This document shows, piece by piece, positions 1,328 to 54,840 of a stretch of DNA of 64,000 bases (within the stretch, counting starts at the first letter, position 1; the number at the start of each line of letters is the position of its first letter). This DNA comes from a virus. The notes under the pieces were generated by a model, which worked only from the letters and a program-made list of their open reading frames with translations, made no database searches and was not told where the DNA came from. The translations under genes and the position numbers were made by a program. Location: positions 19,914-83,913 of the IMG/VR virus record IMGVR_UViG_3300029775_000166. One strand, given 5' to 3'.

Positions 1328-1545
1328 TAAAAAGCAAAGAGATAAATAGAAATCCATTTGCTTTTATGTTTTGCAACTATTTATAGAAGTAGGCAAGAAC
1401 CCCCCTGTGAATTTAGACGTTGAAGTTTTAGAAATAATAAATTAATGATATTAAAAATTAGCACTTGTAGAGATAGTAGATTATGAGATCTATAAAGCAG
1501 GAATCCTACTATTTTATAATAGTGACTTAAACTGAAAGGCGGTGA

Positions 1546-4500
1546 GTGATTTTGATATTTAGATACGATAAAAATCATAAATTGAGACAGAATCAAATTT
1601 TCTTGGCTAATCCTCAAAAAGATTATATTGGTGTTCTGACAAGTGCTAAGAATATTAAAGTAACTTTATTTATGAATGATCTTAATACTGCTTCATTTCG
1701 AATTTATAAATTTGAAAATAATATAGAAAATAAGAATTATACCGAACTTGAAATAAAAAGATTAGTTGAAATTAGATATATTGGATGGTTTCAAATTTCT
1801 AATGTCAAAGAACATGATGACGGAATGTATTCATATAAAGATATTACATGTATAGCATTAGAGAACGAATTAACCGGTAAGCGTATAGATGATATTAAGG
1901 GTGTTTTTGCATTATATGATATTACCGACACTGAACATAGTTTATTACATATAATTACAAGACAGACTGATTGGAAAATTGGACATGTAGATAATGAGTT
2001 AGTCGAAAAATGGCGTACATTTTCAATAGACTCTAATAAAATATATAATTTTCTTGTACAGGATGTAAGCAAATCATTTAGTTGTTTATTTTTATTTGAT
2101 GTTTATGAAAAGACTATCAATGCTTATAAATTAAGTAATTATGGTGAATTAACAGATATCATTATTTCAAAAAAAAATATATTACAAGAATATATTAGAG
2201 AATCAAGTTTGGATAATATTATTACAAAACTTCGTGTAACAGGCGCAGATGGATTAGATATTCGTGCGGTAAATCCTACTGGTTCAAATTATATTATCAA
2301 CGTAAATTATTTTAAGAATACTGGTTGGATGTCACAAGGACTTGTAGATGCATTAGATAATTATGAAAATGCGCTTAATTCTATTGCAAAAACATATACT
2401 ACTACTCTCTCACTTTATAAACAACGGCAGAGCGAATTAACTGTATTAAATGCAGATTTAGAGACACTAAATGCAAATAAAAAAGCAAAGGAAAATGTTC
2501 AGGGTTCATATGTTCAATTATACAATGGCACTCCTCCTTCAACATCTAATGAGTATCAATTATACATAGAAGCAGTAAACGAATTAGCAGATACAAATAG
2601 ACAAATCGCAATTAAAAAAAAAGAAATTCTTAATAAGGAAAATCAAATTGATGACATTAGACAGCAATTAGATGACATCGGTACATCATTAGATCAATCT
2701 AAATATTTTACGAAAGCACATTTGACTGAACTTGAAGTATTTTTAACTGAGAATGATGAATATCAAGATTCAACTTTTATTGCCACAGATACTATGACAG
2801 CAGAAGAAATTATTGATATGAAGCTAGAGTTGTTAGAAAATGCTAAAGAAGAATTAAAAAGGGCAAGTCAACCTCAGTATACGGTAGAAATATTAGCAAG
2901 TAATTTGTATTCAATCATTGATGATGATACTAGAAAATTGTCTTATGACAAATGGAAAGAGCAACTTCAATTAGGAAATATAATAACAATTAAATTTGAA
3001 AAAGGGTATATTACAACTGCTAGGCTGATAAAGATTGAAATAGATTTTGATAATTTGGCTGATTTAAAACTTACATTTAGTGATAAGAGCAGATTTGATA
3101 ATGAACTTACTGAACTTGGTGAATTAATTGCGGATGCTGGAAGAACTTCTAATTCTATGTCATTATCTAAATTTGGATGGGATAAAGCATCTAAGTTAAC
3201 TTCTCCTGTTCAAGAATTTATAACTAGCACTTTAAATGCCACAGTTAATGCTATACAATCCAATGACAATCAAGATATGTATTTTGATACCTATGGTTTA
3301 CATATGCGCAAATGGTTACCAGATCAAAATAAATATGACGATAAACAAGCGTGGTGGACTAACAATATATTGTTATTCTCTGATGATGGTTTTAAGTCTG
3401 CTAAAACTGGTATAGGACAATTTACTACTGAAGCAGGTGAAACATTTTATGGATTTATAGGTGAAGCAATTATTAGTAACATTGTTGCATCTGAATCTTT
3501 AACTATAAAGAATGCCAATAATACATTTATTGTAGATAAAAATGGTGCTTTATTGATTGATGCTAATTTTACAATTACAAGAGGAAATAACAAAATAGTT
3601 CTCGATCCTATAGAAGGATTTAGTATTTATAATAAAAGTGATAAAGTTATATTCCTCGATTCCAATGGTGATGCAAATTTTAAAGGGCATATTACCGCTA
3701 GTAGTATTACATTAACAAATGCTATTGGTCTAACTATTAATAATGGTAATGGAACTTTTACAGTAAGTGCAGATGGTCATATTCACGCTGAATCCGGTGA
3801 TATTGCAGGATTTATTATGGATAATAATGTTTTGTGGGCAGGTAAAGATACTAAATATATTAGGATAAGTTCTGATCATACTTATATAAATGATCAATAT
3901 GGTGCTATTGACTTAGGACTTTCACCTGAAATAAATCCTAGTACTGGAATGAAAGATACCATTATACACCTTAGATCAGATGGATATGCACGTTTTGGAT
4001 TAAACGCACTAGATGGATCAGTTAAATTCAACTATAAAGATCAAGATTTTACCGGTAAGAATAAAACATTTACATTTTATACAAAAAACTTTAGAATAGC
4101 TAATGATGGATTGGTAACTTCAACTGGTATAAACTTGAAAAACGGTAGTCCAATACGTGGATATAGTACAAACGGTATTCCTCATAATTTAGTTAATTTT
4201 TCTCCCAATGATAATGTAGTTGTTGGACAGGAAAACGATCCTCAAAATACACATATTTATGGATTAGATGAACTTGCATTCTATATTGGATCAGATAATA
4301 ATAAAGCATTTATTATGAGTCCAGATAAATTTAGTTTTAAATTGCCTATAGAGCTAAATGGTAATTTAGATGTTGCAGGTGATTTAGGAGTTAAAGGTAA
4401 TGAAACTGTGTCTGGAAATTTAAGTGTAAGTGGGAAAACTACAACTAATACTCTATCATCTTCTGGTAATATTACAATGGGAGGTAATTTAGTAGCAACA

Positions 4501-4719
4501 CAAACATGGGTAAAGGCTCAAGATTATGCAACTAAAGCAGAGTTGGACTCGGCTAAGACTACTTATTATAATCAAGGTAAAGCATATGGTGAATCATTAC
4601 ACGCTGGTGATTATAGTAGAGGGTATAATTCTGGTGAAAGAGACGGCTATAGTAGAGGTTATAGTGAAGGTTATGCTAAGGGGCTTTCTGAAGGTCAAAG
4701 TCAAGGTGGCACAGATTAA
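1546..4719 (+). CDS. Tail-associated lysin/tail spike (prophage endopeptidase-tail family) with coiled-coil and beta-rich C-terminus
   Basis: 1057 aa after Dit; WKIGHVD, IITKLRVTGADGLDI..VNPTG motifs; C-terminal GYxxG repeats. Confidence 0.75.
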   Translation: MILIFRYDKNHKLRQNQIFLANPQKDYIGVLTSAKNIKVTLFMNDLNTASFRIYKFENNIENKNYTELEIKRLVEIRYIGWFQISNVKEHDDGMYSYKDITCIALENELTGKRIDDIKGVFALYDITDTEHSLLHIITRQTDWKIGHVDNELVEKWRTFSIDSNKIYNFLVQDVSKSFSCLFLFDVYEKTINAYKLSNYGELTDIIISKKNILQEYIRESSLDNIITKLRVTGADGLDIRAVNPTGSNYIINVNYFKNTGWMSQGLVDALDNYENALNSIAKTYTTTLSLYKQRQSELTVLNADLETLNANKKAKENVQGSYVQLYNGTPPSTSNEYQLYIEAVNELADTNRQIAIKKKEILNKENQIDDIRQQLDDIGTSLDQSKYFTKAHLTELEVFLTENDEYQDSTFIATDTMTAEEIIDMKLELLENAKEELKRASQPQYTVEILASNLYSIIDDDTRKLSYDKWKEQLQLGNIITIKFEKGYITTARLIKIEIDFDNLADLKLTFSDKSRFDNELTELGELIADAGRTSNSMSLSKFGWDKASKLTSPVQEFITSTLNATVNAIQSNDNQDMYFDTYGLHMRKWLPDQNKYDDKQAWWTNNILLFSDDGFKSAKTGIGQFTTEAGETFYGFIGEAIISNIVASESLTIKNANNTFIVDKNGALLIDANFTITRGNNKIVLDPIEGFSIYNKSDKVIFLDSNGDANFKGHITASSITLTNAIGLTINNGNGTFTVSADGHIHAESGDIAGFIMDNNVLWAGKDTKYIRISSDHTYINDQYGAIDLGLSPEINPSTGMKDTIIHLRSDGYARFGLNALDGSVKFNYKDQDFTGKNKTFTFYTKNFRIANDGLVTSTGINLKNGSPIRGYSTNGIPHNLVNFSPNDNVVVGQENDPQNTHIYGLDELAFYIGSDNNKAFIMSPDKFSFKLPIELNGNLDVAGDLGVKGNETVSGNLSVSGKTTTNTLSSSGNITMGGNLVATQTWVKAQDYATKAELDSAKTTYYNQGKAYGESLHAGDYSRGYNSGERDGYSRGYSEGYAKGLSEGQSQGGTD

Positions 4720-4744
4720 ATAAGTGGTCGGTAAACTTTAAAAA

Positions 4745-4776
4745 TAAAAGGAACTGGATATTTTCAGTTCCTTTTA
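4745..4776. terminator. Bidirectional terminator between convergent genes
   Basis: TAAAAGGAACTG/CAGTTCCTTTTA perfect inverted repeat. Confidence 0.75.
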
Positions 4777-4782
4777 TATAAA

Positions 4783-5574
4783 CTATTCAAAATTATAATC
4801 ATATACAAGTTTGCAACCTGTTGTTACTTCTACATCAAATTTAACATATTTTTTGTTACCAATAATTTGACTAAGGGTTTTTGTATTTTCATTACCAAAA
4901 TACTTAACCAAATCATCATCGTTGATCATGTTATATATTGCATCGTCACTGTCTATATATTCAGCAATCATTACAAGAAGATACTCGCCATTACGTACTT
5001 TATTAAATCCATAAGTGGATATGTTATTATTACCTTCGTAATAAAAAGATGATTGTTTATAAAAAGTTTTTGGATCTTCATTTTCAATTAATATATTTTT
5101 TAATTCTTTTAATTCATATATAGGTTGTTCTTTATCTTTAGGGATTAATAATAAATCTACTGTACAAGGATTTACTTTATTTTCGTTATTAGTGTCAATA
5201 TATGTTACTCCACCTGTAATACTTCCTACTTGTTCAGGTATTACAGTTACGTTGCATTTATATTTCTTTTTTTGATAAGTTGCTGTAATTGTTGCTTCTC
5301 CTGCGGATTTGCCAGTAATTCTTCCATAGTTATTTACTGTTGCGACAGATTTATCACTAGATCTCCATTTCATATCAGATTTTATAGGCTTATCATCTTT
5401 TAATAATTGTACGTCATAACAAATTACTTTTTCTTCAATTGTTAATTCAGTGAGGCTTAATTTAATGTTACTCTTTTTTGATTTTGCATATGCTATGGAG
5501 CTACCGGTATATGCTGTAAAAACTATTGCTAATACGAGTACTAATGCAATTTTTAATTTATTTACTATTTTCAT
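4783..5574 (-). CDS. Secreted Ig-like (Big_2) domain protein; moron
   Basis: Signal peptide (..SIAYA); WRSSDKSVATVNNYGRITGKSAGEATITAT Big_2 motif; antisense to the tail operon. Confidence 0.8.
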   Translation of the reverse strand: MKIVNKLKIALVLVLAIVFTAYTGSSIAYAKSKKSNIKLSLTELTIEEKVICYDVQLLKDDKPIKSDMKWRSSDKSVATVNNYGRITGKSAGEATITATYQKKKYKCNVTVIPEQVGSITGGVTYIDTNNENKVNPCTVDLLLIPKDKEQPIYELKELKNILIENEDPKTFYKQSSFYYEGNNNISTYGFNKVRNGEYLLVMIAEYIDSDDAIYNMINDDDLVKYFGNENTKTLSQIIGNKKYVKFDVEVTTGCKLVYDYNFE

Positions 5575-5630
5575 TGGTTCTCCTCCTTTGTGTAATAGAT
5601 AGTGAACGTTGGTATGATGTTATATACCAA

Positions 5631-5659
5631 ATTATACCACAATTATAACTAAAAATCAA
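5631..5659 (-). promoter_or_regulatory. SigA-type promoter of the moron
   Basis: TTGATT-17bp-TGnTATAAT on the minus strand. Confidence 0.65.
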
Positions 5660-5822
5660 CAATAAAAAAACAATATTGTAAATTGAATACTCGCTACGCA
5701 CTCTCGTGACTTTAGTCATGAGTTAGTGGCGACATATGTTAATATAAAAACATAATCAATATACTGAAAACACTTGATTTCTAAATATACATATGTTATA
5801 TTATATTTAGAGGTGATAATAT

Positions 5823-6227
5823 ATGGCAGACATACACAAAGGAAGAGGATATGTGTATTCAATACAATATCATATAGTATGGTGTGTAAAATATAGACAT
5901 AAAGTAATTAATGGCGAAATAGAAAATAAATTAAAAGAAATAATATATAAAATAGCAGAAGATAATAATTTTATTATCGAAGAAATGGAAACTGATTTAG
6001 ACCACATACACTTATTAATAGAATGTAGTCCCCAACATTACATACCTAATATAATAAAAGCATTAAAAGGAGTGTCTGCTAGACTATTAATGAAGGAGTA
6101 TGGATGTGTATTAAAAAGGAAATTATGGGGAGGACATTTATGGAATCCTAGTTATTTTATCGCCACAGTAAGTGAAAATACAGAGGAACAAATAAGAAAT
6201 TATATTCAAAGTCAAAAAATCAAATAG
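5823..6227 (+). CDS. tnpA: IS200/IS605 Y1 HUH transposase
   Basis: YHIVWCVKYR, DHIH (HUH), LWNPSYF catalytic Tyr. Confidence 0.95.
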   Translation: MADIHKGRGYVYSIQYHIVWCVKYRHKVINGEIENKLKEIIYKIAEDNNFIIEEMETDLDHIHLLIECSPQHYIPNIIKALKGVSARLLMKEYGCVLKRKLWGGHLWNPSYFIATVSENTEEQIRNYIQSQKIK

Positions 6228-6247
6228 AAAGGTAGGTGAATTTATCT

Positions 6248-7393
6248 ATGAAAACTGTAATAAAAGGATATAAATATAGAATATATCCAACCAAAGAACA
6301 AGAAGTGCAATTAGCTAAAACTTTTGGTTCATGTAGATTTGTTTATAATCAAATATTAGCAAAGAAAATAGAATTATATAGAACAGATAAAAAATCTATA
6401 AGCAAAACAGATTGTAACAATTATTGTAATAGAGAATTAAAAAAGCAATATCTATGGCTCAAAGAAGTAGATAAATTTGCTTTAACTAATTCTATTTATG
6501 ATTTGGATAGAGCTTATCAAAATTTCTTTAGAGAAGTAAAAAAGGGTAATAAAAATCAAGGATTCCCCAAATTTAAGTCAAAGAAAAATCACTATTATTC
6601 TTATAAAACTAATTTTACAAATAACAATATTAAAGTAGATTTTGAGAATAATAGAGTTCAGCTACCTAAACTAAAATGGTTAAAAGCTAAACTTCATAGA
6701 CATTTTGATGGTAGAATATTGTTCGCTACAATAAGCAAAACTCCTAGTGGTAAATATTTTGTTAGTTTTAATGTAGAATGTGAACATAAGGAACTAAAAC
6801 AAAACAATAACTCATTAGGAATGGATTTAGGAATTAAAGATTTATTAATTACGTCAGATGGCGAAGTATTTGATAATAAAAAATTAACATATAAATATGA
6901 GTTAAAATTAGCTAAATTACAAAGACAGATTGCTAAAAAGAAGATAGGTAGTAACAAATGGAAGAAACAAAGAGTTAAAATTGCTAGAATATATGAAAAA
7001 ATAACCAATATTAGAAAAGATAATTTAAATAAGATTTCTCACCAAATAGTTAAGGAAAATCAACTTATATTTAGTGAAAATCTTAATATAAAAGGTATGG
7101 TTAAAAATCATAATTTAGCAAAATCTATTCATGATTGTAGTTGGTATGAATTAACAAGACAACTAGCTTATAAATCAGAATGGAATAATCGTATTTATCA
7201 TAAGGTTGATAGATATTATCCTTCAAGTCAATTATGTAATGTATGTGGATATAAAAATAAAGATACTAAAAATTTAGGTGTTAGATTTTGGATATGTCCT
7301 GAATGTCATACAAAACATGATAGAGATATAAATGCTAGTATAAATATTCTTAATCAAGGATTAAAGGATTTAGGATCAGATAAGGCAGTTTAA
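6248..7393 (+). CDS. tnpB: TnpB RNA-guided nuclease (copy 1), RuvC D-E-D intact
   Basis: GMDLG / FSENL / HDRDINA; CNVCG..CPEC zinc finger; ATG 6248 after RBS (alternative GTG 6236). Confidence 0.95.
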   Translation: MKTVIKGYKYRIYPTKEQEVQLAKTFGSCRFVYNQILAKKIELYRTDKKSISKTDCNNYCNRELKKQYLWLKEVDKFALTNSIYDLDRAYQNFFREVKKGNKNQGFPKFKSKKNHYYSYKTNFTNNNIKVDFENNRVQLPKLKWLKAKLHRHFDGRILFATISKTPSGKYFVSFNVECEHKELKQNNNSLGMDLGIKDLLITSDGEVFDNKKLTYKYELKLAKLQRQIAKKKIGSNKWKKQRVKIARIYEKITNIRKDNLNKISHQIVKENQLIFSENLNIKGMVKNHNLAKSIHDCSWYELTRQLAYKSEWNNRIYHKVDRYYPSSQLCNVCGYKNKDTKNLGVRFWICPECHTKHDRDINASINILNQGLKDLGSDKAV

Positions 7394-7394
7394 A

Positions 7395-7524
7395 TATATA
7401 AAAACAATAGGGTAGGAACTATCCAAATTAAGACGCCCATGGAGTTAGTAGGTTACGAGGACTATGAAGTGGGAAAATGATAGAGTAATCTTGAAGCACG
7501 CGACTTTAGTCGTGTGAGGTTCAC
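7395..7524 (+). ncRNA. omegaRNA scaffold/right end of TnpB1 element
   Basis: Post-tnpB region ending in CACGCGAC-TTTA-GTCGTGTG hairpin and GGTTCAC; 5' limit uncertain. Confidence 0.7.
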
Positions 7525-7758
7525 GTAGATAAAGACCATATACACATGATGATTGAAAGTGAACCAAAACTATCTCCATTGATGATAGTTAGAGTCTTAA
7601 AACAACAATCAACACAAATTATATATGGTCGTCATCGAAATGAATTAAAGAAACAATTTTGGAAAGAAAACACATTTTGGACTGATGGATATTTCTGTTC
7701 AAGCATTGGAGAGGTTAGTAGTGAAACGTTAAAACGATACATAGAAAATCAAGGCTGA
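7525..7758 (+). pseudogene. tnpA: 3' half of a second tnpA, truncated just before the HUH motif
   Basis: In-frame VDKDHIHMM...FWTDGYFCSSIG..YIENQG begins at the base after RE1. Confidence 0.9.
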
Positions 7759-7895
7759 TTATTAATATATTTGTTGATAACAGTTAAAATCAAATTATTT
7801 ACACTTCTGTTATCTTCCTTTGCTAACTTTTCAAGTCTTTCTTTTGTTTCTTTCGGCATGGTAACAAGTACTCTAGTATTGTTATCAGATATCAT
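7749..7895 (-). CDS. Ribbon-helix-helix (CopG/Arc-like) DNA-binding protein, 48 aa
   Basis: GGAGGTG RBS; TRVLVTMPKETKERLEKLAKEDNRSVNNLI RHH signature. Confidence 0.8.
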   Translation of the reverse strand: MISDNNTRVLVTMPKETKERLEKLAKEDNRSVNNLILTVINKYINNQP

Positions 7896-7914
7896 AAATT
7901 TCACCTCCAAAAGT

Positions 7915-7965
7915 ATTATATCATATAATATTTTAGTTGACAAGGTGATATCACTATGATATAAT
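7915..7965. promoter_or_regulatory. Back-to-back overlapping SigA promoters with palindromic operator
   Basis: + TTGACA(7937)-17-TATAAT(7960); - TTGTCA-17-TATAAT(7920-7915); GTGATATCAC 7945-7954. Confidence 0.8.
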
Positions 7966-7991
7966 TATTTTTAGAAAGGAGATGATTATAA

Positions 7992-9095
7992 ATGTTGAAA
8001 GCATACAAATATAGACTTTATCCAAATAAAGAACAACAAGAATATTTTGCAAAAACTTTTGGATGTGTACGATTCATTTATAATCGTATGCTTTCTGATA
8101 AAATCGAGTATTACAAAGAAACAAAGCAGAAACTAAATAATACTCCCGCTCAATATAAGAAAGAATTTGAGTGGTTAAAAGAAGTAGATTCTCTTGCTTT
8201 AGCTAATGCTCAAATGAACTTACAAACGGCTTATAATAACTTTTTCAAAAGACCAGATGTAGGATTTCCAAAATTCAAAAGTAAGAAAAATAATCACTAT
8301 TCTTACACTACTAATAATCAAGGTGGTAATATTTATGTATCAGATAAATATATTAAATTACCAAAGATTGGATTAGTTAAAGTTAAGAAACATAGGGAAT
8401 TTGATGGACTTATAAAATCAGTAACTGTTTCTAAAGTACCAAGTGGTAAGTACTATGTGTCAGTATTAGTAAAACAAGAAGATATTGAAAAGTTACCAGA
8501 ATGCAGTAATACTCTAGGTATTGATTTGGGAATTAAAGAATTTGCAATTACTTCTAATGGAGAAATGATTGAGAACCCAAAGTTTCTAAGACAATCGGAA
8601 GATAGATTGAGAAAACTACAGAAAGATTTATCAAGAACTAAAAAAGGGAGTAAAAACCGAAACAAATGTAGAATTAAAGTCGCCAAGCAACATGAGAAGA
8701 TAGCAAATCAAAGAAAAGATTTCTTAAATAAGTTGTCGAAAAGGTTAATTAACGAAAATCAAGTAACTGCTTTAGAGACATTAAAAATAAAAAACATGAT
8801 GAAAAATCACAAACTTGCAAAATCTGTAGCCGATGTATCATGGTCAGAATTTGTACGACAACTAGAATATAAAGCTAATTGGTGTGGACGAGAAATTTTG
8901 CGAATTGACACTTGGTATCCTTCAAGTCAAATTTGTTCTTGTTGTGGACATAAGGATGGTAAGAAATCATTGTCAATTAGAGAATGGACTTGTTCAGAAT
9001 GTGGCACTCATCACGAAAGAGATATTAATGCAGCAATAAACATACTAAATGAAGGTTTGAGAAATAGAATCGTAGGAACTACGAGGATAGCTTAG
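7992..9095 (+). CDS. tnpB: TnpB RNA-guided nuclease (copy 2), RuvC D-E-D intact
   Basis: GIDLG / ALETL / HERDINA; zinc finger present. Confidence 0.95.
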
Positions 9096-9161
9096 GTAAA
9101 CTTGTCTCGTTAGAGATATTGACTAAGAAGCCGACAAGTCTTTAGCTTGGCGGTAGTTCAC
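9000..9161 (+). ncRNA. omegaRNA scaffold/right end of TnpB2 element
   Basis: Ends GAAGCCGACAAGTCTTTAGCTTGGCGGTAGTTCAC; near-identical copy at 42411-42571; 5' limit uncertain. Confidence 0.75.
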
Positions 9162-9190
9162 TATAACAAATAGAAAGGAATTTTATAATT

Positions 9191-9577
9191 ATGAAGATTA
9201 AATATAGTGAAGCTTTAAACATTTTGGATGCATGTAAGGAATTATTAAAGATTGATATCAATGATATTAAGGTAAGAGTAAAAATTGTTAAAAATATTAG
9301 GAATCTTGAGAATTTATTAAAGACATATACTGAATGTGATTATAATCTGCTAACAAAATATGCTATTAAAGATGATGATGGTAATATAAAGGTGTTTGAA
9401 GATAATACATATAGAATTACACCGAAATATATTCCTGAGTATAACAAGCAAAAAAATGAATTATTAAATGTAGAAGATGAAGTAGAATTATTGCATTTTA
9501 CTATTGATGAATTATCAAAAGTAGATAACATTTCAAACGAAGTTTTACTGAATCTGGCAAATATTATAGATGAATAA
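9191..9577 (+). CDS. Phage protein, probable tail assembly
   Basis: Good RBS; in tail operon. Confidence 0.5.
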   Translation: MKIKYSEALNILDACKELLKIDINDIKVRVKIVKNIRNLENLLKTYTECDYNLLTKYAIKDDDGNIKVFEDNTYRITPKYIPEYNKQKNELLNVEDEVELLHFTIDELSKVDNISNEVLLNLANIIDE

Positions 9578-9616
9578 ATGAGATGTTCTATCTAAGGAAA
9601 GTGTGGTGATATTTAA

Positions 9617-11563
9617 ATGATTAATGCCAACGATAAAATTACAATTGATATTCATAAGAAAAATGAGTATGTATACATATATGCAAAACAATATGACCAA
9701 GATACACGAAAAGTAGAAGTCACAATAACAGATAATGATGAACCGATTGTATTACAAGAAGGTGCAAAGGCTAGAGTTCGTTATTCAAAAAGGGATAAAA
9801 AGGGCGGTTATATTGAAATTGAAAAAGCCGACATAATAAACAATGTAGTTTATCTAACGTTGACTCAGCAAATGTTAACTGCATCTGGAAAAGTAACTAT
9901 TGATATAGAGTTTTATGAATTTGTTACTGGTGAAGATGGTCATGTTACATATCATAATCTGTCTACTGCTACTTTTTATATTTATGTAGCCCCTGCGGCT
10001 ATTGATGAAAAAACAATAATATCATCAAATGAGTTCTCTGTTTTAGTTAATGCATTGGTAAGAACGGAAGAAGCTCTTGCAGAAGCAGAAGCTTTATTAC
10101 CAGTGATTCAAGAAGCAATAGATACTGCAAATTCTACTTTGGATACTATGAATAATCGTTTTGGTGAAATTGAGGAACAATGGCAATATATTCTTGATAC
10201 CACTGATGAATTAATTGAATCTTCCTTAGCTGCTCAGGAAGCTGCTAAACAGGCAGAACAAAGTAGAATAGACGCATCTGATTATGCTACCAATGCATCT
10301 AATTATGCCACTGATGCAAAAGCAAGTGCATTAAGTGCAAGCAATTATGCTGATATTGCTTATGCTCAAGCAGATCGAAGCCAATATTATGCAGAACAGG
10401 CTGAAGCTAGTGCTCTATTAGCGATTGATGCTAAGGGCACTACTATTAAAACACTAGCAGATTTTAATGCTAACATAGATAGTTTTAGAACAAAAAATGA
10501 ACTTATTGCAGAATCAGATTTAACAGCTAATTTGAAAAATAAAATAGACGGAAAAGCGTCTATTGAAAGTGTCAGATTAAAAGATGATCCTATTACTGAA
10601 GCAGACCTTGATTATGCTCTTGCTTTAAAAGTTAATAATGGAGGCGGCGGTGAAGGTGGAGGCGGCGGTATTATTGTTTCTGGTGCACAGATTGATGATA
10701 CTGAAGCTTCATACTCAAAAGTTTATTCATCTCAAAAGACAGTTAGTTATGTTACAACATCAATTGAAAGCGCTATAAGCGGTATTCAAGGATTATCTGA
10801 TAACAACTTTACTACAGCTGAAAAAATAAAATTATCTAGGATTGAGAATAGCGCAAATTATTATGTTCATCCTTTAACTCATCCTGCATCTATTATAACT
10901 ACCACTCCAGAGTTACAATTTATTTCGGAAGTTGAAAAAGAAAATTTTGCAGATAAATATACTAAAGATGAAGTTGATAATTTAATTGCGCAGATATCAT
11001 CCGGTATTATATGGAAACCAGACGTTCCACATTATTCAGATATTGCTATAGTATATCCTAATCCCGAGTTTAACTGGTGTGTTTCTACACAAGATGGTAC
11101 TTTCTTATATAATGGAGAAGAATGGATTAAAATTGGTTCTGGAACAATACCTATTGCTACCACTTCTGCTAATGGTTTAATGTCCGCCGCTGATAAAGCA
11201 AAACTTAATAATATAGAAGCAAATGCTAATAGGTATATACATCCATTAACACACTCAGCAGATATGATTATGGAATCTGAAACTAAACGATTTATTACTT
11301 CTGAAATGTATACCAAGATTGTTGAATTAGATGATTGGATAAACGGACTTTTAAGTGATTATAGATTAAAAACTGTTAAAATATTAGAGACTGATTTAGA
11401 TCAAGGCTTTTTGGATAAGGTAGCTAATGCTGGTGGTACTATTATTAACGACAATGTAATGTCACTAGCTACAACATATAGCTCTGCAAAGATAGAAAGC
11501 TTTGTAAATAATTTTGAAATTTCAGTTGTGGATGATGACGATATATTGAATTTATTTGCATAA
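9617..11563 (+). CDS. BppU-family upper baseplate/tail fibre protein
   Basis: N-terminal YAKQYDQDTRKVEVTI BppU-like domain; coiled coil; HPLTH and LSDNNFTTAEK fibre repeats. Confidence 0.75.
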   Translation: MINANDKITIDIHKKNEYVYIYAKQYDQDTRKVEVTITDNDEPIVLQEGAKARVRYSKRDKKGGYIEIEKADIINNVVYLTLTQQMLTASGKVTIDIEFYEFVTGEDGHVTYHNLSTATFYIYVAPAAIDEKTIISSNEFSVLVNALVRTEEALAEAEALLPVIQEAIDTANSTLDTMNNRFGEIEEQWQYILDTTDELIESSLAAQEAAKQAEQSRIDASDYATNASNYATDAKASALSASNYADIAYAQADRSQYYAEQAEASALLAIDAKGTTIKTLADFNANIDSFRTKNELIAESDLTANLKNKIDGKASIESVRLKDDPITEADLDYALALKVNNGGGGEGGGGGIIVSGAQIDDTEASYSKVYSSQKTVSYVTTSIESAISGIQGLSDNNFTTAEKIKLSRIENSANYYVHPLTHPASIITTTPELQFISEVEKENFADKYTKDEVDNLIAQISSGIIWKPDVPHYSDIAIVYPNPEFNWCVSTQDGTFLYNGEEWIKIGSGTIPIATTSANGLMSAADKAKLNNIEANANRYIHPLTHSADMIMESETKRFITSEMYTKIVELDDWINGLLSDYRLKTVKILETDLDQGFLDKVANAGGTIINDNVMSLATTYSSAKIESFVNNFEISVVDDDDILNLFA

Positions 11564-19577: not shown

Positions 19578-20459
19578 ATGAGCAAGTGCACAGCCAAAGA
19601 TTTAATTAAGGTTGCAGAAAAATACGTTGGATATCTAGAAAAAAAAAGTAATAAGCAGTTAGATAGTTTGACTGATAATGCCGGCAAAGGCAATTATACT
19701 CGTTTTGCTAGAGAATATTATAATTTTGCAGGAGTTAATTTACAAGGTCAAGCGTGGTGCGATATGTTCGTGGATACCTGCTTTGTTGAAGCTTTTGGTA
19801 CTAAAAAAGCAAAAGAGTTATTAGGTGGATTTAGTGCATACACTCCTACATCTGCATTGTATTATCAAAAAATGAATAGATGGTATGCCTCTAATCCTAA
19901 AGTTGGCGATCAAATATTCTTTAAAAGTTCCACTAGAATAAATCATACTGGTATCGTTTATAAAGTAACATCTTCCACTGTCTATACCATTGAAGGGAAT
20001 ACTTCTGGTGGTAAAGATGTTGTTGCTAATGGCGGTGGAGTATTTGAGAAAGAATACAGTCTTAAAAACTCTAGGATTGCTGGCTATGGTAGACCTAATT
20101 ATGATAAAGAAGAAAAACCTAAGAATGACGAAAAGGCAGAAAAACCAGATACAAAATTAGTATACGATTATTACACTGTCAAGCCTGGAGATACATTATC
20201 TAAAATTGCCCGTAAATATAATACCACAGTAGACAAACTGGTTAAGCTAAATAATATTAAGAATGCCAATGTAATTAACATAGGTCAGAAGCTGAAGGTT
20301 AGTACATATAGTGTATACAAAGTGGTTAAAGGCGACAGTTTAAGTAAAATTGCTAAAAACTTATTAGGTAATGCAAATAGATATAAAGAGATTATGGAGT
20401 ACAATAGACTAAAAAGTACGGTAATTCATGTGGGGGATGAATTAAAGATTCCTATGTAA
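19578..20459 (+). CDS. Endolysin, CHAP domain plus two LysM
   Basis: AWCDMFV..HTGIV..TIEGNT CHAP; [13 protein letters not shown] and [13 protein letters not shown] LysM. Confidence 0.9.
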
Positions 20460-42410: not shown

Positions 42411-42571
42411 GTGAACTACCGCCAAGCTAAAGACTTGTCGGCTTCTTAGTCAATATCGCCATTGCGACAAGTTTACCTAAGCTATCCTCGTAGTTCCTAC
42501 GATTCTATTTCTCAAACCTTCATTTAGTATGTTTATTGCTGCATTTATATCTCTTTCATGATGAGTGCCAC
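42411..42571 (-). mobile_element. TnpB2-type 3' remnant with complete right end/omegaRNA
   Basis: 7 mismatches in 161 nt versus 9001-9161. Confidence 0.9.
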
Positions 42572-42857
42572 ATTTCTTACAAGTCCATACTGCGCCTTTT
42601 TGTTTACCGGCAACACTATAATCCTGACATGGACTCCCTCCAACAATCATATTAAATGGCTCTAATTTTGTTTCATCTACCTTTGTGATATCGCCTAAAT
42701 TTATGCTTTTATTAAAAAGCTGCAACCCTATGAAACAATGGTATTACAGAGGAGGAAAATACTTGAAATGCTATAAACTAGTTAATTTTTGTGAATTTGA
42801 CAAATACGCTATCGATAGTTACTGTGCTATACATAATGTGAATAAAAGCATAAATTT
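42477..42857 (-). pseudogene. Cytosine-5 methyltransferase remnant, partly inverted and fused to TnpB tail
   Basis: GDITKVD..GGSPCQD on minus; YKLVNFCEFDKYA..IHN on plus inside the inverted segment; motif I absent. Confidence 0.8.
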
Positions 42858-48363: not shown

Positions 48364-49623
48364 TTAGATTAAGTTAACCCTAATTGGATGACAACCTACA
48401 CCCTCTATCCCATCTTCAAATGAATTTGGGAATGCTTTGACCATAATTTGATATGATCCATTTACATCTGCATTAATTTCAGTTCCGCTATTACTTATGA
48501 AGAGACCACGATATTTCCTCCTTTCCTTGTCATAATTTTCTTTTACAGGTGTTTCTCTATCTAAAAAGCTTGTTCCACTTGTATAAGACTCATTTGTTGT
48601 CTTAAAAATAATTCCTACGTTTTCACATTTATATGTAAGTTTGTCAACCAAGGTTTTATATGGTATTTGTATAAACTTCTGATTGCTAACCTTACCCATG
48701 TTTGATTCTTGTTTCCAACCCTGATTATATCCACAAACTAGTGTATCAATATTATTATCTAAACAATAATCAACTATCATCTTGGTAGCCTTATGTATAT
48801 AATCACAAACCTTATTATTTCTCTTAGTTGTTAACCTTTGAAGTTTATTACTCCAGTCTTTATCATTTTTAGTCTTTAACATTGATTTTTGTTTAGCTAG
48901 TTCTTTATTGTAATATTGATTAATTGATTTTAAAGGTCTTCCGTTAATAATAAGTGGTTGTAATCCACAATTGTTTGTAATTGTTAATAAATTATCTACA
49001 CCTAAATCTATTGATGCTATTCTTTCTGTGTCGCTACATATGTCTGGAACTTCTATTTCATAAATAATTTCCATTATGTAATCATCGCCTTTTGGCACAA
49101 ACCTACATTGTATTAACTTAGAGTCACTTGAAATTTTTGTATAATATGTATTGTTTAATATTTTTAATGGTGTCCATGAAAAATAAATACAAGCATCAAC
49201 TATTCTAAATTTTATATTGTCAATATCCAATTCATATCTTCCATCTTTAGGTAAGTATGTAGGTATTCTTGGCATCCCCTTATATTTGTTGGGATTTTTA
49301 TTCCAATCTTTAATAGATTTAAAATATGATACCCAATTTTGATTTAATTTTCTTAATGTTGCTTGACCTACATTACTCCCCATATCTTTATATGGCTCAC
49401 TGCCTTTCACTAGTTTAAATAATTCATTGTATTGTATCCAGTTTGCATTTTCTCGTAATCCTTGTTGTTTTTCTTTTGATGTAATTATAAATTCTTGTCT
49501 AATTATATAATTGCCATAGTTATATACATTCTTTGATTTAAAACATAAACTATCTATCAATTTCCAATTTTTATTATTTTTCCTTATTCTGTGCTGTTCT
49601 ACTCTATTTACTTTCATTAACAT
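48364..49623 (-). CDS. tnpB: Solo TnpB (copy 3), atypical RuvC-II, no zinc finger
   Basis: SIDLGVDN; VCGYNQGWKQE; ESYTS; INADVNG; no tnpA or TTCAC end nearby. Confidence 0.85.
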   Translation of the reverse strand: MLMKVNRVEQHRIRKNNKNWKLIDSLCFKSKNVYNYGNYIIRQEFIITSKEKQQGLRENANWIQYNELFKLVKGSEPYKDMGSNVGQATLRKLNQNWVSYFKSIKDWNKNPNKYKGMPRIPTYLPKDGRYELDIDNIKFRIVDACIYFSWTPLKILNNTYYTKISSDSKLIQCRFVPKGDDYIMEIIYEIEVPDICSDTERIASIDLGVDNLLTITNNCGLQPLIINGRPLKSINQYYNKELAKQKSMLKTKNDKDWSNKLQRLTTKRNNKVCDYIHKATKMIVDYCLDNNIDTLVCGYNQGWKQESNMGKVSNQKFIQIPYKTLVDKLTYKCENVGIIFKTTNESYTSGTSFLDRETPVKENYDKERRKYRGLFISNSGTEINADVNGSYQIMVKAFPNSFEDGIEGVGCHPIRVNLI

Positions 49624-54297: not shown

Positions 54298-54840
54298 TTA
54301 TTTCCTTTTAAATAAGAACCACAAATCTTTATCAATAATATCTCTACCATAAAGGTAAATCCTCACTTCATTATCTTTCTTAGCAAAATAAATCCTTTCA
54401 TTTTTACTTACAGGCAACTTTCTAAATTCTTTCAACATATTTCTTGATATAATATTCACTCGTTTTTGTGACATACCCCAATTGCCATCAAAATAAGGTT
54501 CTTGCCAATTACAAAATTGTATTCTTTTCGGTTCGTATTCTTCATACATTTTATTTACTTTTTCATAAGCTTCTTTTAATTCTGCCCTTGTATGAGGTTG
54601 TTTTGAATATTTAAAATCTTCATTTTTATCTATTTCCTCATAATCCATATACATACTAAATAATTCTTCATCAAAATTTGGTTCGCTATCATAAAAATTT
54701 TCACAAGCTTCCACCACGTAATATTTATTAAAAAGATTATCTAAAAGCTTATTAGAAAGTGCTTTATGCATAAATGAATATCCATTTTCAATATCTGTTC
54801 TTAATTCTTTTTCGATTAATTCTTTATCAATACAAATCAT
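54298..54840 (-). CDS. Hypothetical phage protein
   Basis: RBS, co-oriented. Confidence 0.5.
   Translation of the reverse strand: MICIDKELIEKELRTDIENGYSFMHKALSNKLLDNLFNKYYVVEACENFYDSEPNFDEELFSMYMDYEEIDKNEDFKYSKQPHTRAELKEAYEKVNKMYEEYEPKRIQFCNWQEPYFDGNWGMSQKRVNIISRNMLKEFRKLPVSKNERIYFAKKDNEVRIYLYGRDIIDKDLWFLFKRK

Follow-up and report, generated by a model that had tools for sequence, protein, structure and literature searches.

Two compact insertion sequences that stand directly side by side in a phage genome raise the question of whether the RNA-guided nuclease of one takes its guide from, and is directed against, the transposase gene of the other. The locus lies in a window of 64,000 nt, the whole stretch of DNA analysed here (positions 19,914–83,913 of IMG/VR virus record IMGVR_UViG_3300029775_000166), from a Clostridium-type phage. 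Two IS200/IS605-family elements, IS1 and IS2, occur in series at window positions 5683–9161 (Table 1). An earlier note on this DNA had proposed that the guide of the IS1 nuclease, TnpB1, is transposase coding sequence, that one element is thereby armed against another, and that TnpB1 would home into or disarm rival elements in the host or in co-infecting phages. Based on the evidence below, the locus is likely a nested insertion junction of the two elements, with the tnpA2 flank used as a guide in its ordinary donor-site role.

Table 1. Coordinates of the features discussed, on the window unless another contig is named
Feature	Position	Strand	Details
TTGAA target site, inferred TAM	5683..5687	+	Directly left of IS1
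IS1, complete IS605-type element, 1837 bp	5688..7524	+	Homology breaks against L007, L008, L068 and L009
LE1 subterminal hairpin	5703..5722	+	8-bp stem, TTTA loop; resembles RE1 hairpin; conserved in relatives
tnpA1, full-length Y1 (HUH) transposase, 134 aa	5823..6227	+	Pfam Y1_Tnp 2-121/121, E = 1.2e-42
tnpB1, 381 aa from ATG; ORF opens at GTG 6236	6248..7393	+	Pfam HTH_OrfB_IS605, OrfB_IS605, Cas12f1-like_TNB
TnpB1 catalytic codons	D197 6824-6826; E281 7076-7078; D364 7325-7327	+	Alignment to ISDra2 TnpB
Predicted TnpB1 omegaRNA scaffold, 5' limit approximate	7400..7524	+	Stem 7410-7424, RE1 hairpin 7497-7516
Predicted guide segment of omegaRNA1, 16 nt (20-nt version to 7544)	7525..7540	+	Position directly 3' of RE1; equals tnpA2 codons 56-61
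tnpA2 remnant, codons 56-132 and stop	7525..7758	+	Pfam Y1_Tnp 48-121/121, E = 1.1e-21
Ribbon-helix-helix (RHH) gene, 48 aa, inside IS2	7749..7895	-	Pfam RHH_5, E = 1.5e-7; convergent with tnpA2
tnpB2 of IS2, 367 aa	7992..9095	+	Pfam
3' part of IS2, right end RE2 finishing at 9161	9096..9161	+	Homology to IS2 copies elsewhere stops there
L007 IS1 right-end junction site	54415-54435; L007:4290-5124	-	Inside ORF 54298-54840 (-)

Structure, target site and nuclease of IS1

IS1 has the hallmarks of the IS605 group, namely a Y1 HUH transposase within the range of ~130–150 aa and subterminal hairpins at both ends without terminal inverted repeats. The transposase retains its HUH motif (at residue 60) and its C-terminal tyrosine (at residue 126), and the element is arranged in the order tnpA1, tnpB1 and guide-RNA scaffold. 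Past tnpB1, a tail of ~125 untranslated nt closes with the RE1 hairpin and eight further bases; the LE1 and RE1 hairpins have similar stems and an identical loop.

To place the ends of IS1, we retrieved four further copies of the family from IMG/VR via TnpB1, with 99.8% (L007), 83% (L008), 82% (L068) and 76% (L009) identity to the window copy. Homology of all four ends exactly at 7524, the five copies have five unrelated right flanks, and on the left the homology of L008 and L068 starts at the TTGAA that precedes IS1. This pentanucleotide was found to the left of all five close copies and of two solo LE1 relics described below, while the wider family shows TTGA[A/T] at its left edge. No target duplication was seen, insertion occurring 3' of the fixed pentanucleotide. 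Two pre-insertion sites were recovered, the intact tnpA2 alleles and window positions 54435–54431 (minus strand), both with TTGAA right before the flank. Read from these flanks, TTGAA is the probable TAM of IS1; for the related element ISDra2, the target and TAM were experimentally determined to be TTGAT (PMC8612924).

TnpB1 aligned to ISDra2 TnpB (PDB 8H1J, 8EXA) over residues 10–380 (E = 1.5e-88; residues counted from the GTG at 6236). The RuvC triad that the earlier note had described as intact is so: D197, E281 and D364 align with D191, E278 and D361 of ISDra2, and both CxxC pairs of the zinc finger are also conserved. Downstream, a consensus fold of the last 170 nt from 11 relatives contained 17 pairs in two stems (7410–7424 and the RE hairpin), with compensatory changes on both sides in six of the 17 pairs, spread over both stems. 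This covariation argues that the RNA scaffold is under structural constraint. No Rfam family reached threshold for this RNA, and no terminator-like site was found between 7524 and 8065.

In ISDra2, the last ~16 nt of the TnpB-bound RNA correspond to flanking DNA, the TAM is the TnpA target site and cleavage occurs 15–21 bp from the TAM (PMC8612924). The earlier note had likewise drawn its guide from the right-end flank, and the precedent of the 16 nt after the ISDra2 right end agrees with it. By analogy, we infer that a guide RNA is made in which the flank at 7525–7540 serves as the TnpB1 guide, and that TnpB1 would cleave DNA matching it.

The resemblance to ISDra2 of Deinococcus radiodurans (PDB 8H1J, 8EXA, 8BF8) extends to the tnpA-tnpB order, the subterminal hairpins, insertion 3' of a pentanucleotide without target duplication, the D-E-D triad with zinc finger, and a guide-RNA scaffold that takes in the right end together with the 3' region of tnpB. 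The element itself is thus not new and its mechanism is textbook TnpB biology. IS1 differs from ISDra2 in having TTGAA (inferred from flanks) rather than TTGAT, in being phage-borne and in having the transposase gene of another insertion sequence as its right flank. A limited literature search found no described case of an IS605 guide taken from the tnpA of another insertion sequence.

The closest relative of IS1 bears on its mobility. In L007, the left flank and IS1 are 99.7–99.8% identical to the window, and the right flank corresponds to the window from 54430 downwards on the minus strand. At that site the window has an uninterrupted ORF (54298–54840, minus strand), with TTGAA (54435–54431) directly before the flank. 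Both this TTGAA and the L007 flank are retained in the window, so that a TnpB guide of the L007 type would find its match there. Two origins fit the arrangement in L007, namely an inversion of ~47 kb with oppositely oriented IS1 copies as its end points, or a chimera made by the assembler at the repeat. These data indicate recent mobility or recombination, and IS1 probably is, or recently was, mobile in this phage lineage.

The guide would matter little if TnpB1 or its omegaRNA were not expressed or were inactive, leaving only an inconsequential flank. HpyTnpB of IS608 offers a precedent, as it showed no activity in interference assays although its gene is intact (10.1101/2023.03.14.532601). 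Against this, every ORF of IS1 is open, no catalytic residue has been lost, and the existence of a 99.8% identical copy with another right flank indicates recent mobility or recombination. We therefore regard a silent relic as unlikely.

The ancestral state of the locus

The frame that starts at 7525 opens with VDKDHIH, the region of the HUH motif, and runs for 77 codons to a stop at 7756–7758, the Y1_Tnp domain being present from position 48 onwards. The claim that the bases after RE1 (7525–7544) encode this part of a tnpA was therefore correct. The missing half of the gene is not found on the other side of IS1, where the DNA is instead a phage intergenic region upstream of a Big_2-domain gene (4783–5574, minus strand).

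Two sibling phages preserve what was lost. An IMG/VR contig (L090) is 99.76% identical to window 1530–5687, then has 251 extra nt at L090:10279–10529 and rejoins the window at 7525. A contig from an ENA fermentation metagenome (L114) has the same 251 extra nt, resumes at 7525 and continues through RE2 (9161) into window 9162–9735. The left flank of both, up to 5687, is 99.6–99.8% identical to the window, and the first 150 nt of the remnant are 100% identical to the intact L114 tnpA2 allele. The 251 nt comprise a 26-nt spacer, TTTAA, the IS2 left-end hairpin (LE2) and tnpA2 codons 1–55, ending in TTGAA. Judging from five IS2 left junctions, TTTAA is likely the IS2 target site. At the other end of IS2, homology to copies at other sites (L088, L089 and L091) is lost at 9161. 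Since sibling phages hold an intact IS2 at this same locus (the L090 contig ends within it), IS2 is orthologous among them and the window represents the derived state.

The break in tnpA2 falls exactly after TTGAA and exactly at the IS1 terminus, which identifies it as a true IS200/IS605 integration at a canonical site. On this strand, ~0.2% of window positions carry TTGAA, which occurs twice within the 399-nt tnpA2 ORF. Random truncation of tnpA2 was considered as an origin of the breakpoint and rejected on the match to both the IS1 terminus and the TTGAA site. The second TTGAA of the ORF is kept in the remnant (7553–7557), 29 nt past the IS1 right end, and is a potential further landing site for IS1.

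These observations suggest the following history. In the ancestral arrangement, which L090 and L114 preserve, IS2 (tnpA2, RHH gene and tnpB2) follows a TTGAA at a distance of 26 nt and occupies the intergenic DNA upstream of the Big_2-domain gene. IS1 would then have moved in by Y1 'peel-and-paste' transposition, 3' of a second TTGAA in tnpA2 codons 54–55 (Ile-Glu), splitting tnpA2 just before its HUH motif, and the 251 nt between both TTGAA sites would have been lost afterwards. The most likely cause of this loss is either a recombination event involving two IS1 copies or a deletion that joined the TTGAA repeats. The routes that fit the data are recombination of an IS1 at the upstream TTGAA with the IS1 in tnpA2, a deletion between the 5-nt repeats, and an aberrant left-end-to-left-end strand exchange by TnpA. 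An exact search of IMG/VR for the junction of the tnpA2 N-terminal part with LE1, which would mark an undeleted nested intermediate, found none.

As the window is a metagenome-derived viral contig and the 1.8-kb IS1 exceeds short reads, the arrangement might also be an assembly artifact. Either the RE1–tnpA2 join would be chimeric, or a tandem of IS1, the 251 nt and a second IS1 would have been collapsed, the real genome keeping LE2 and the tnpA2 N-terminus; in a contig, such a collapse is indistinguishable from a 251-nt deletion. That L007 connects this left flank with sequence from 47 kb away, and that the L090 contig ends within IS2, may be read in the same sense. However, a false join has no reason to fall both exactly at the IS1 terminus and exactly after the TTGAA of the allele, and the 109-kb record contains no second Y1_Tnp N-terminus. 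Even if a tandem had been collapsed, the genome would contain the RE1–tnpA2 junction and with it the guide. An artifact is in our judgment quite improbable, and we retain the nested insertion as the explanation of the junction.

IS2 itself has several features of interest. The RHH gene between tnpA2 and tnpB2 travels with IS2 at other sites (L088, L089 and L091) and is therefore part of the element, where it is unusual cargo for an IS605-type element; the region 7749–7991 that contains it also has back-to-back near-consensus promoters (12/12 and 11/12 matches). In the middle of tnpB2, positions 8425–8724 are only 67–78% identical to the IS2 of L114, compared to 96–100% in the surrounding IS2 and flanks, and appear to be a gene-conversion patch from another tnpB2 allele. 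Because IS2 is mosaic relative to L114, the history of the locus would include gene conversion and not follow a simple two-step path. The tnpB2 3' end and right end (9064–9197) gave a weak, sub-threshold match to Rfam family Ref70 (Enterococcus sRNA 70; 27 bits, E = 0.1); members of this sRNA family may themselves be guide-RNA scaffolds of TnpB proteins.

Intact tnpA genes matching the predicted guide

We searched for the exact 20-mer that follows RE1 (7525–7544) in IMG/VR, in metagenomes and in species-representative genomes. IMG/VR gave six matches, five of them in intact tnpA genes of the tnpA2 subfamily, and in four of these five (L088–L091) TTGAA stands immediately before the 20-mer, within the Ile-Glu codons. 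The metagenome collection gave 15 matches: seven in the tnpA2 subfamily, five in another tnpA subfamily with TGGAA and three in unrelated genes. TTGAA was present in six of the seven tnpA2-subfamily alleles (L107, L109, L111, L112, L114 and L115) and absent from L108. The earlier note had set out beforehand a search for intact tnpA alleles with a compatible TAM, the lack of which would have refuted its reading. Such alleles exist: 10 of the 12 intact tnpA2-subfamily alleles combine TTGAA with a 20/20 protospacer. Among species-representative bacterial genomes, the exact 20-mer never occurred in a tnpA, and host-borne targets of the kind that the note envisaged were accordingly absent from this collection; the two matches there, in an Acidobacteria MAG and in Ureaplasma, have flanks unlike tnpA2 and no upstream TTGAA.

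In the two alleles that lack TTGAA, L087 (13100–13131) and L108, the Ile codon is ATA in place of ATT, which removes the TAM and leaves the protein unchanged. This synonymous loss could reflect chance or escape from targeting and insertion; with n = 2, it is not evidence of escape.

Could the guide be a dedicated weapon, with IS1 or the phage selected for a guide against the HUH codons that disarms or colonizes IS2-family elements in hosts or competing phages? In favor of this, the 20-mer codes for the conserved VDKDHIH and is shared by three or more tnpA subfamilies, TAM-bearing alleles are common in the IS2 subfamily (10 of 12), and the TAM loss in L087 and L108 is readable as escape. Yet the RE1–tnpA2 junction is unique, being found by exact search in no other IMG/VR viral contig and in none of the 15 metagenome matches. 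Across the right flanks of ~70 relatives (tblastn with both TnpAs, right ends placed heuristically), a tnpA fragment occurred in the window only. Other tnpA subfamilies have TGGAA rather than TTGAA, and the insertion site fully explains the guide. In addition, the left homology arm for IS2 homing (LE2 and tnpA2 codons 1–55) is absent from the window, so homing into IS2 elsewhere is compromised and clean homing unlikely. Of the picture of an 'armed' element, the target, the TAM and the nuclease are present; the guide, however, follows passively from where IS1 inserted and bears no sign of selection, and we consider a selected weapon very unlikely.

It is also extremely unlikely that a 3.5-kb composite unit from LE1 to RE2 (5688–9161) hopped here after nesting: LE1 and RE2 do bracket the block, both right ends close with the same hexamer and TTGAA precedes it, but sibling phages have IS2 intact in this position, between the same left and right (9162–9735) flanks, so the block arose in place, and it is far less parsimonious to assume a hop that came down 31 nt from the resident IS2 site and took the place of IS2. 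The junction is thus best read as an insertion of IS1 into a resident IS2.

Predicted effects in mixed infections and related elements in the phage

In the established model of IS605 TnpB function, the excised donor joint (TAM plus right flank) is cut and recombination with a sister copy restores the element; alleles without the element are also cut (10.1101/2023.03.14.532601; PMC8612924). Applied to a nested IS1, guide RNA would be transcribed through RE1 into the flank, and the first 16 nt of the tnpA2 remnant would become the TnpB1 guide. Its primary role would be at the donor site: when TnpA1 excises IS1, the rejoined phage left flank with TTGAA and the sequence from 7525 onwards would be cut, and IS1 restored from a sister copy. 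As a side effect, the TnpB1 RNP would cut uninterrupted tnpA2 alleles with TTGAA and the protospacer. By analogy with ISDra2, a cut 15–21 bp from the TAM would fall at 7539–7545, within the H-I-H codons (7537–7545), in line with the earlier prediction of cleavage at the HUH codons.

The outcome of such a cut would depend on where the target lies. An IS2 copy elsewhere would have only the right arm of the window copy for repair, and breakage or repair from other IS2 copies would be expected. Homing into rival elements, as first proposed, could work only in sibling phages with the phage left flank in common. In a co-infection with a phage of the L090 or L114 type, repair from a window-type genome could convert the locus, which is mechanistically plausible because both arms exist (99.6–99.8% identity on the left, 100% over the first 150 nt on the right for L114). 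That the TnpB1 RNP acts in mixed infections as a natural RNA-guided gene drive between sibling phages, one that also strikes a rival transposon, is rather unlikely. If it does, the drive would copy IS1 in and delete the IS2 left end and transposase N-terminus, immobilizing IS2 permanently, and the same RNP would break TAM-bearing IS2-family copies in the host chromosome.

Two known systems resemble the mechanism predicted here. In ISGst of Geobacillus stearothermophilus (Meers et al.), the guide also matches the TAM and right flank, a cut at the empty site leads to recombinational restoration, and alleles lacking the element are targeted. IS1 differs in that its element-less allele, tnpA2, is itself mobile and multicopy, occurring both in sibling phages and on further contigs, and in that the present copy is without a left homology arm. 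Phage intron- or intein-encoded and free-standing homing endonucleases likewise act in mixed infections, where the element-less allele is cut and converted from the carrier; unlike these, IS1 would rely on RNA-guided rather than protein-based recognition and has its own transposase.

Near-identical phages thus provide a natural allelic series: an intact IS2 with TAM and protospacer (L090 and L114), the nested IS1 of the window, and, in L007, an IS1 with another flank, for which the window has the intact target. With these ready substrates, two questions could be addressed beyond engineered E. coli: does cleavage guided by TnpB cause alleles to be converted between phages in a co-infection, and can one insertion sequence disable another?

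Further traces of such elements occur in the same phage and beyond. Solo LE1 copies of ~46–60 nt, located after TTGAA with no transposase or tnpB beside them, were found in the virus record outside the window (C1:97380-97429, minus strand; L002:1501-1550) and in Clostridium phage c-st (AP008983 60524-60586; L006:4001-4063); each is either what remains of a lost IS1 copy or a miniature derivative. The 63-nt copy in c-st was the only match in a megablast search of GenBank phages. We dropped c-st as an empty-site reference after tblastx gave no flank homology; its relic, like the window IS1, lies upstream of a minus-strand surface-protein gene. Two minus-strand stretches of the window, 42411–42623 and 48445–48660, point to more such elements: an orphan copy of the IS2 right end and omegaRNA region adjoins an 88-aa TnpB C-terminal remnant, and a third full-length TnpB-like ORF of 420 aa follows further along. 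The phage therefore carries several OMEGA-type elements.
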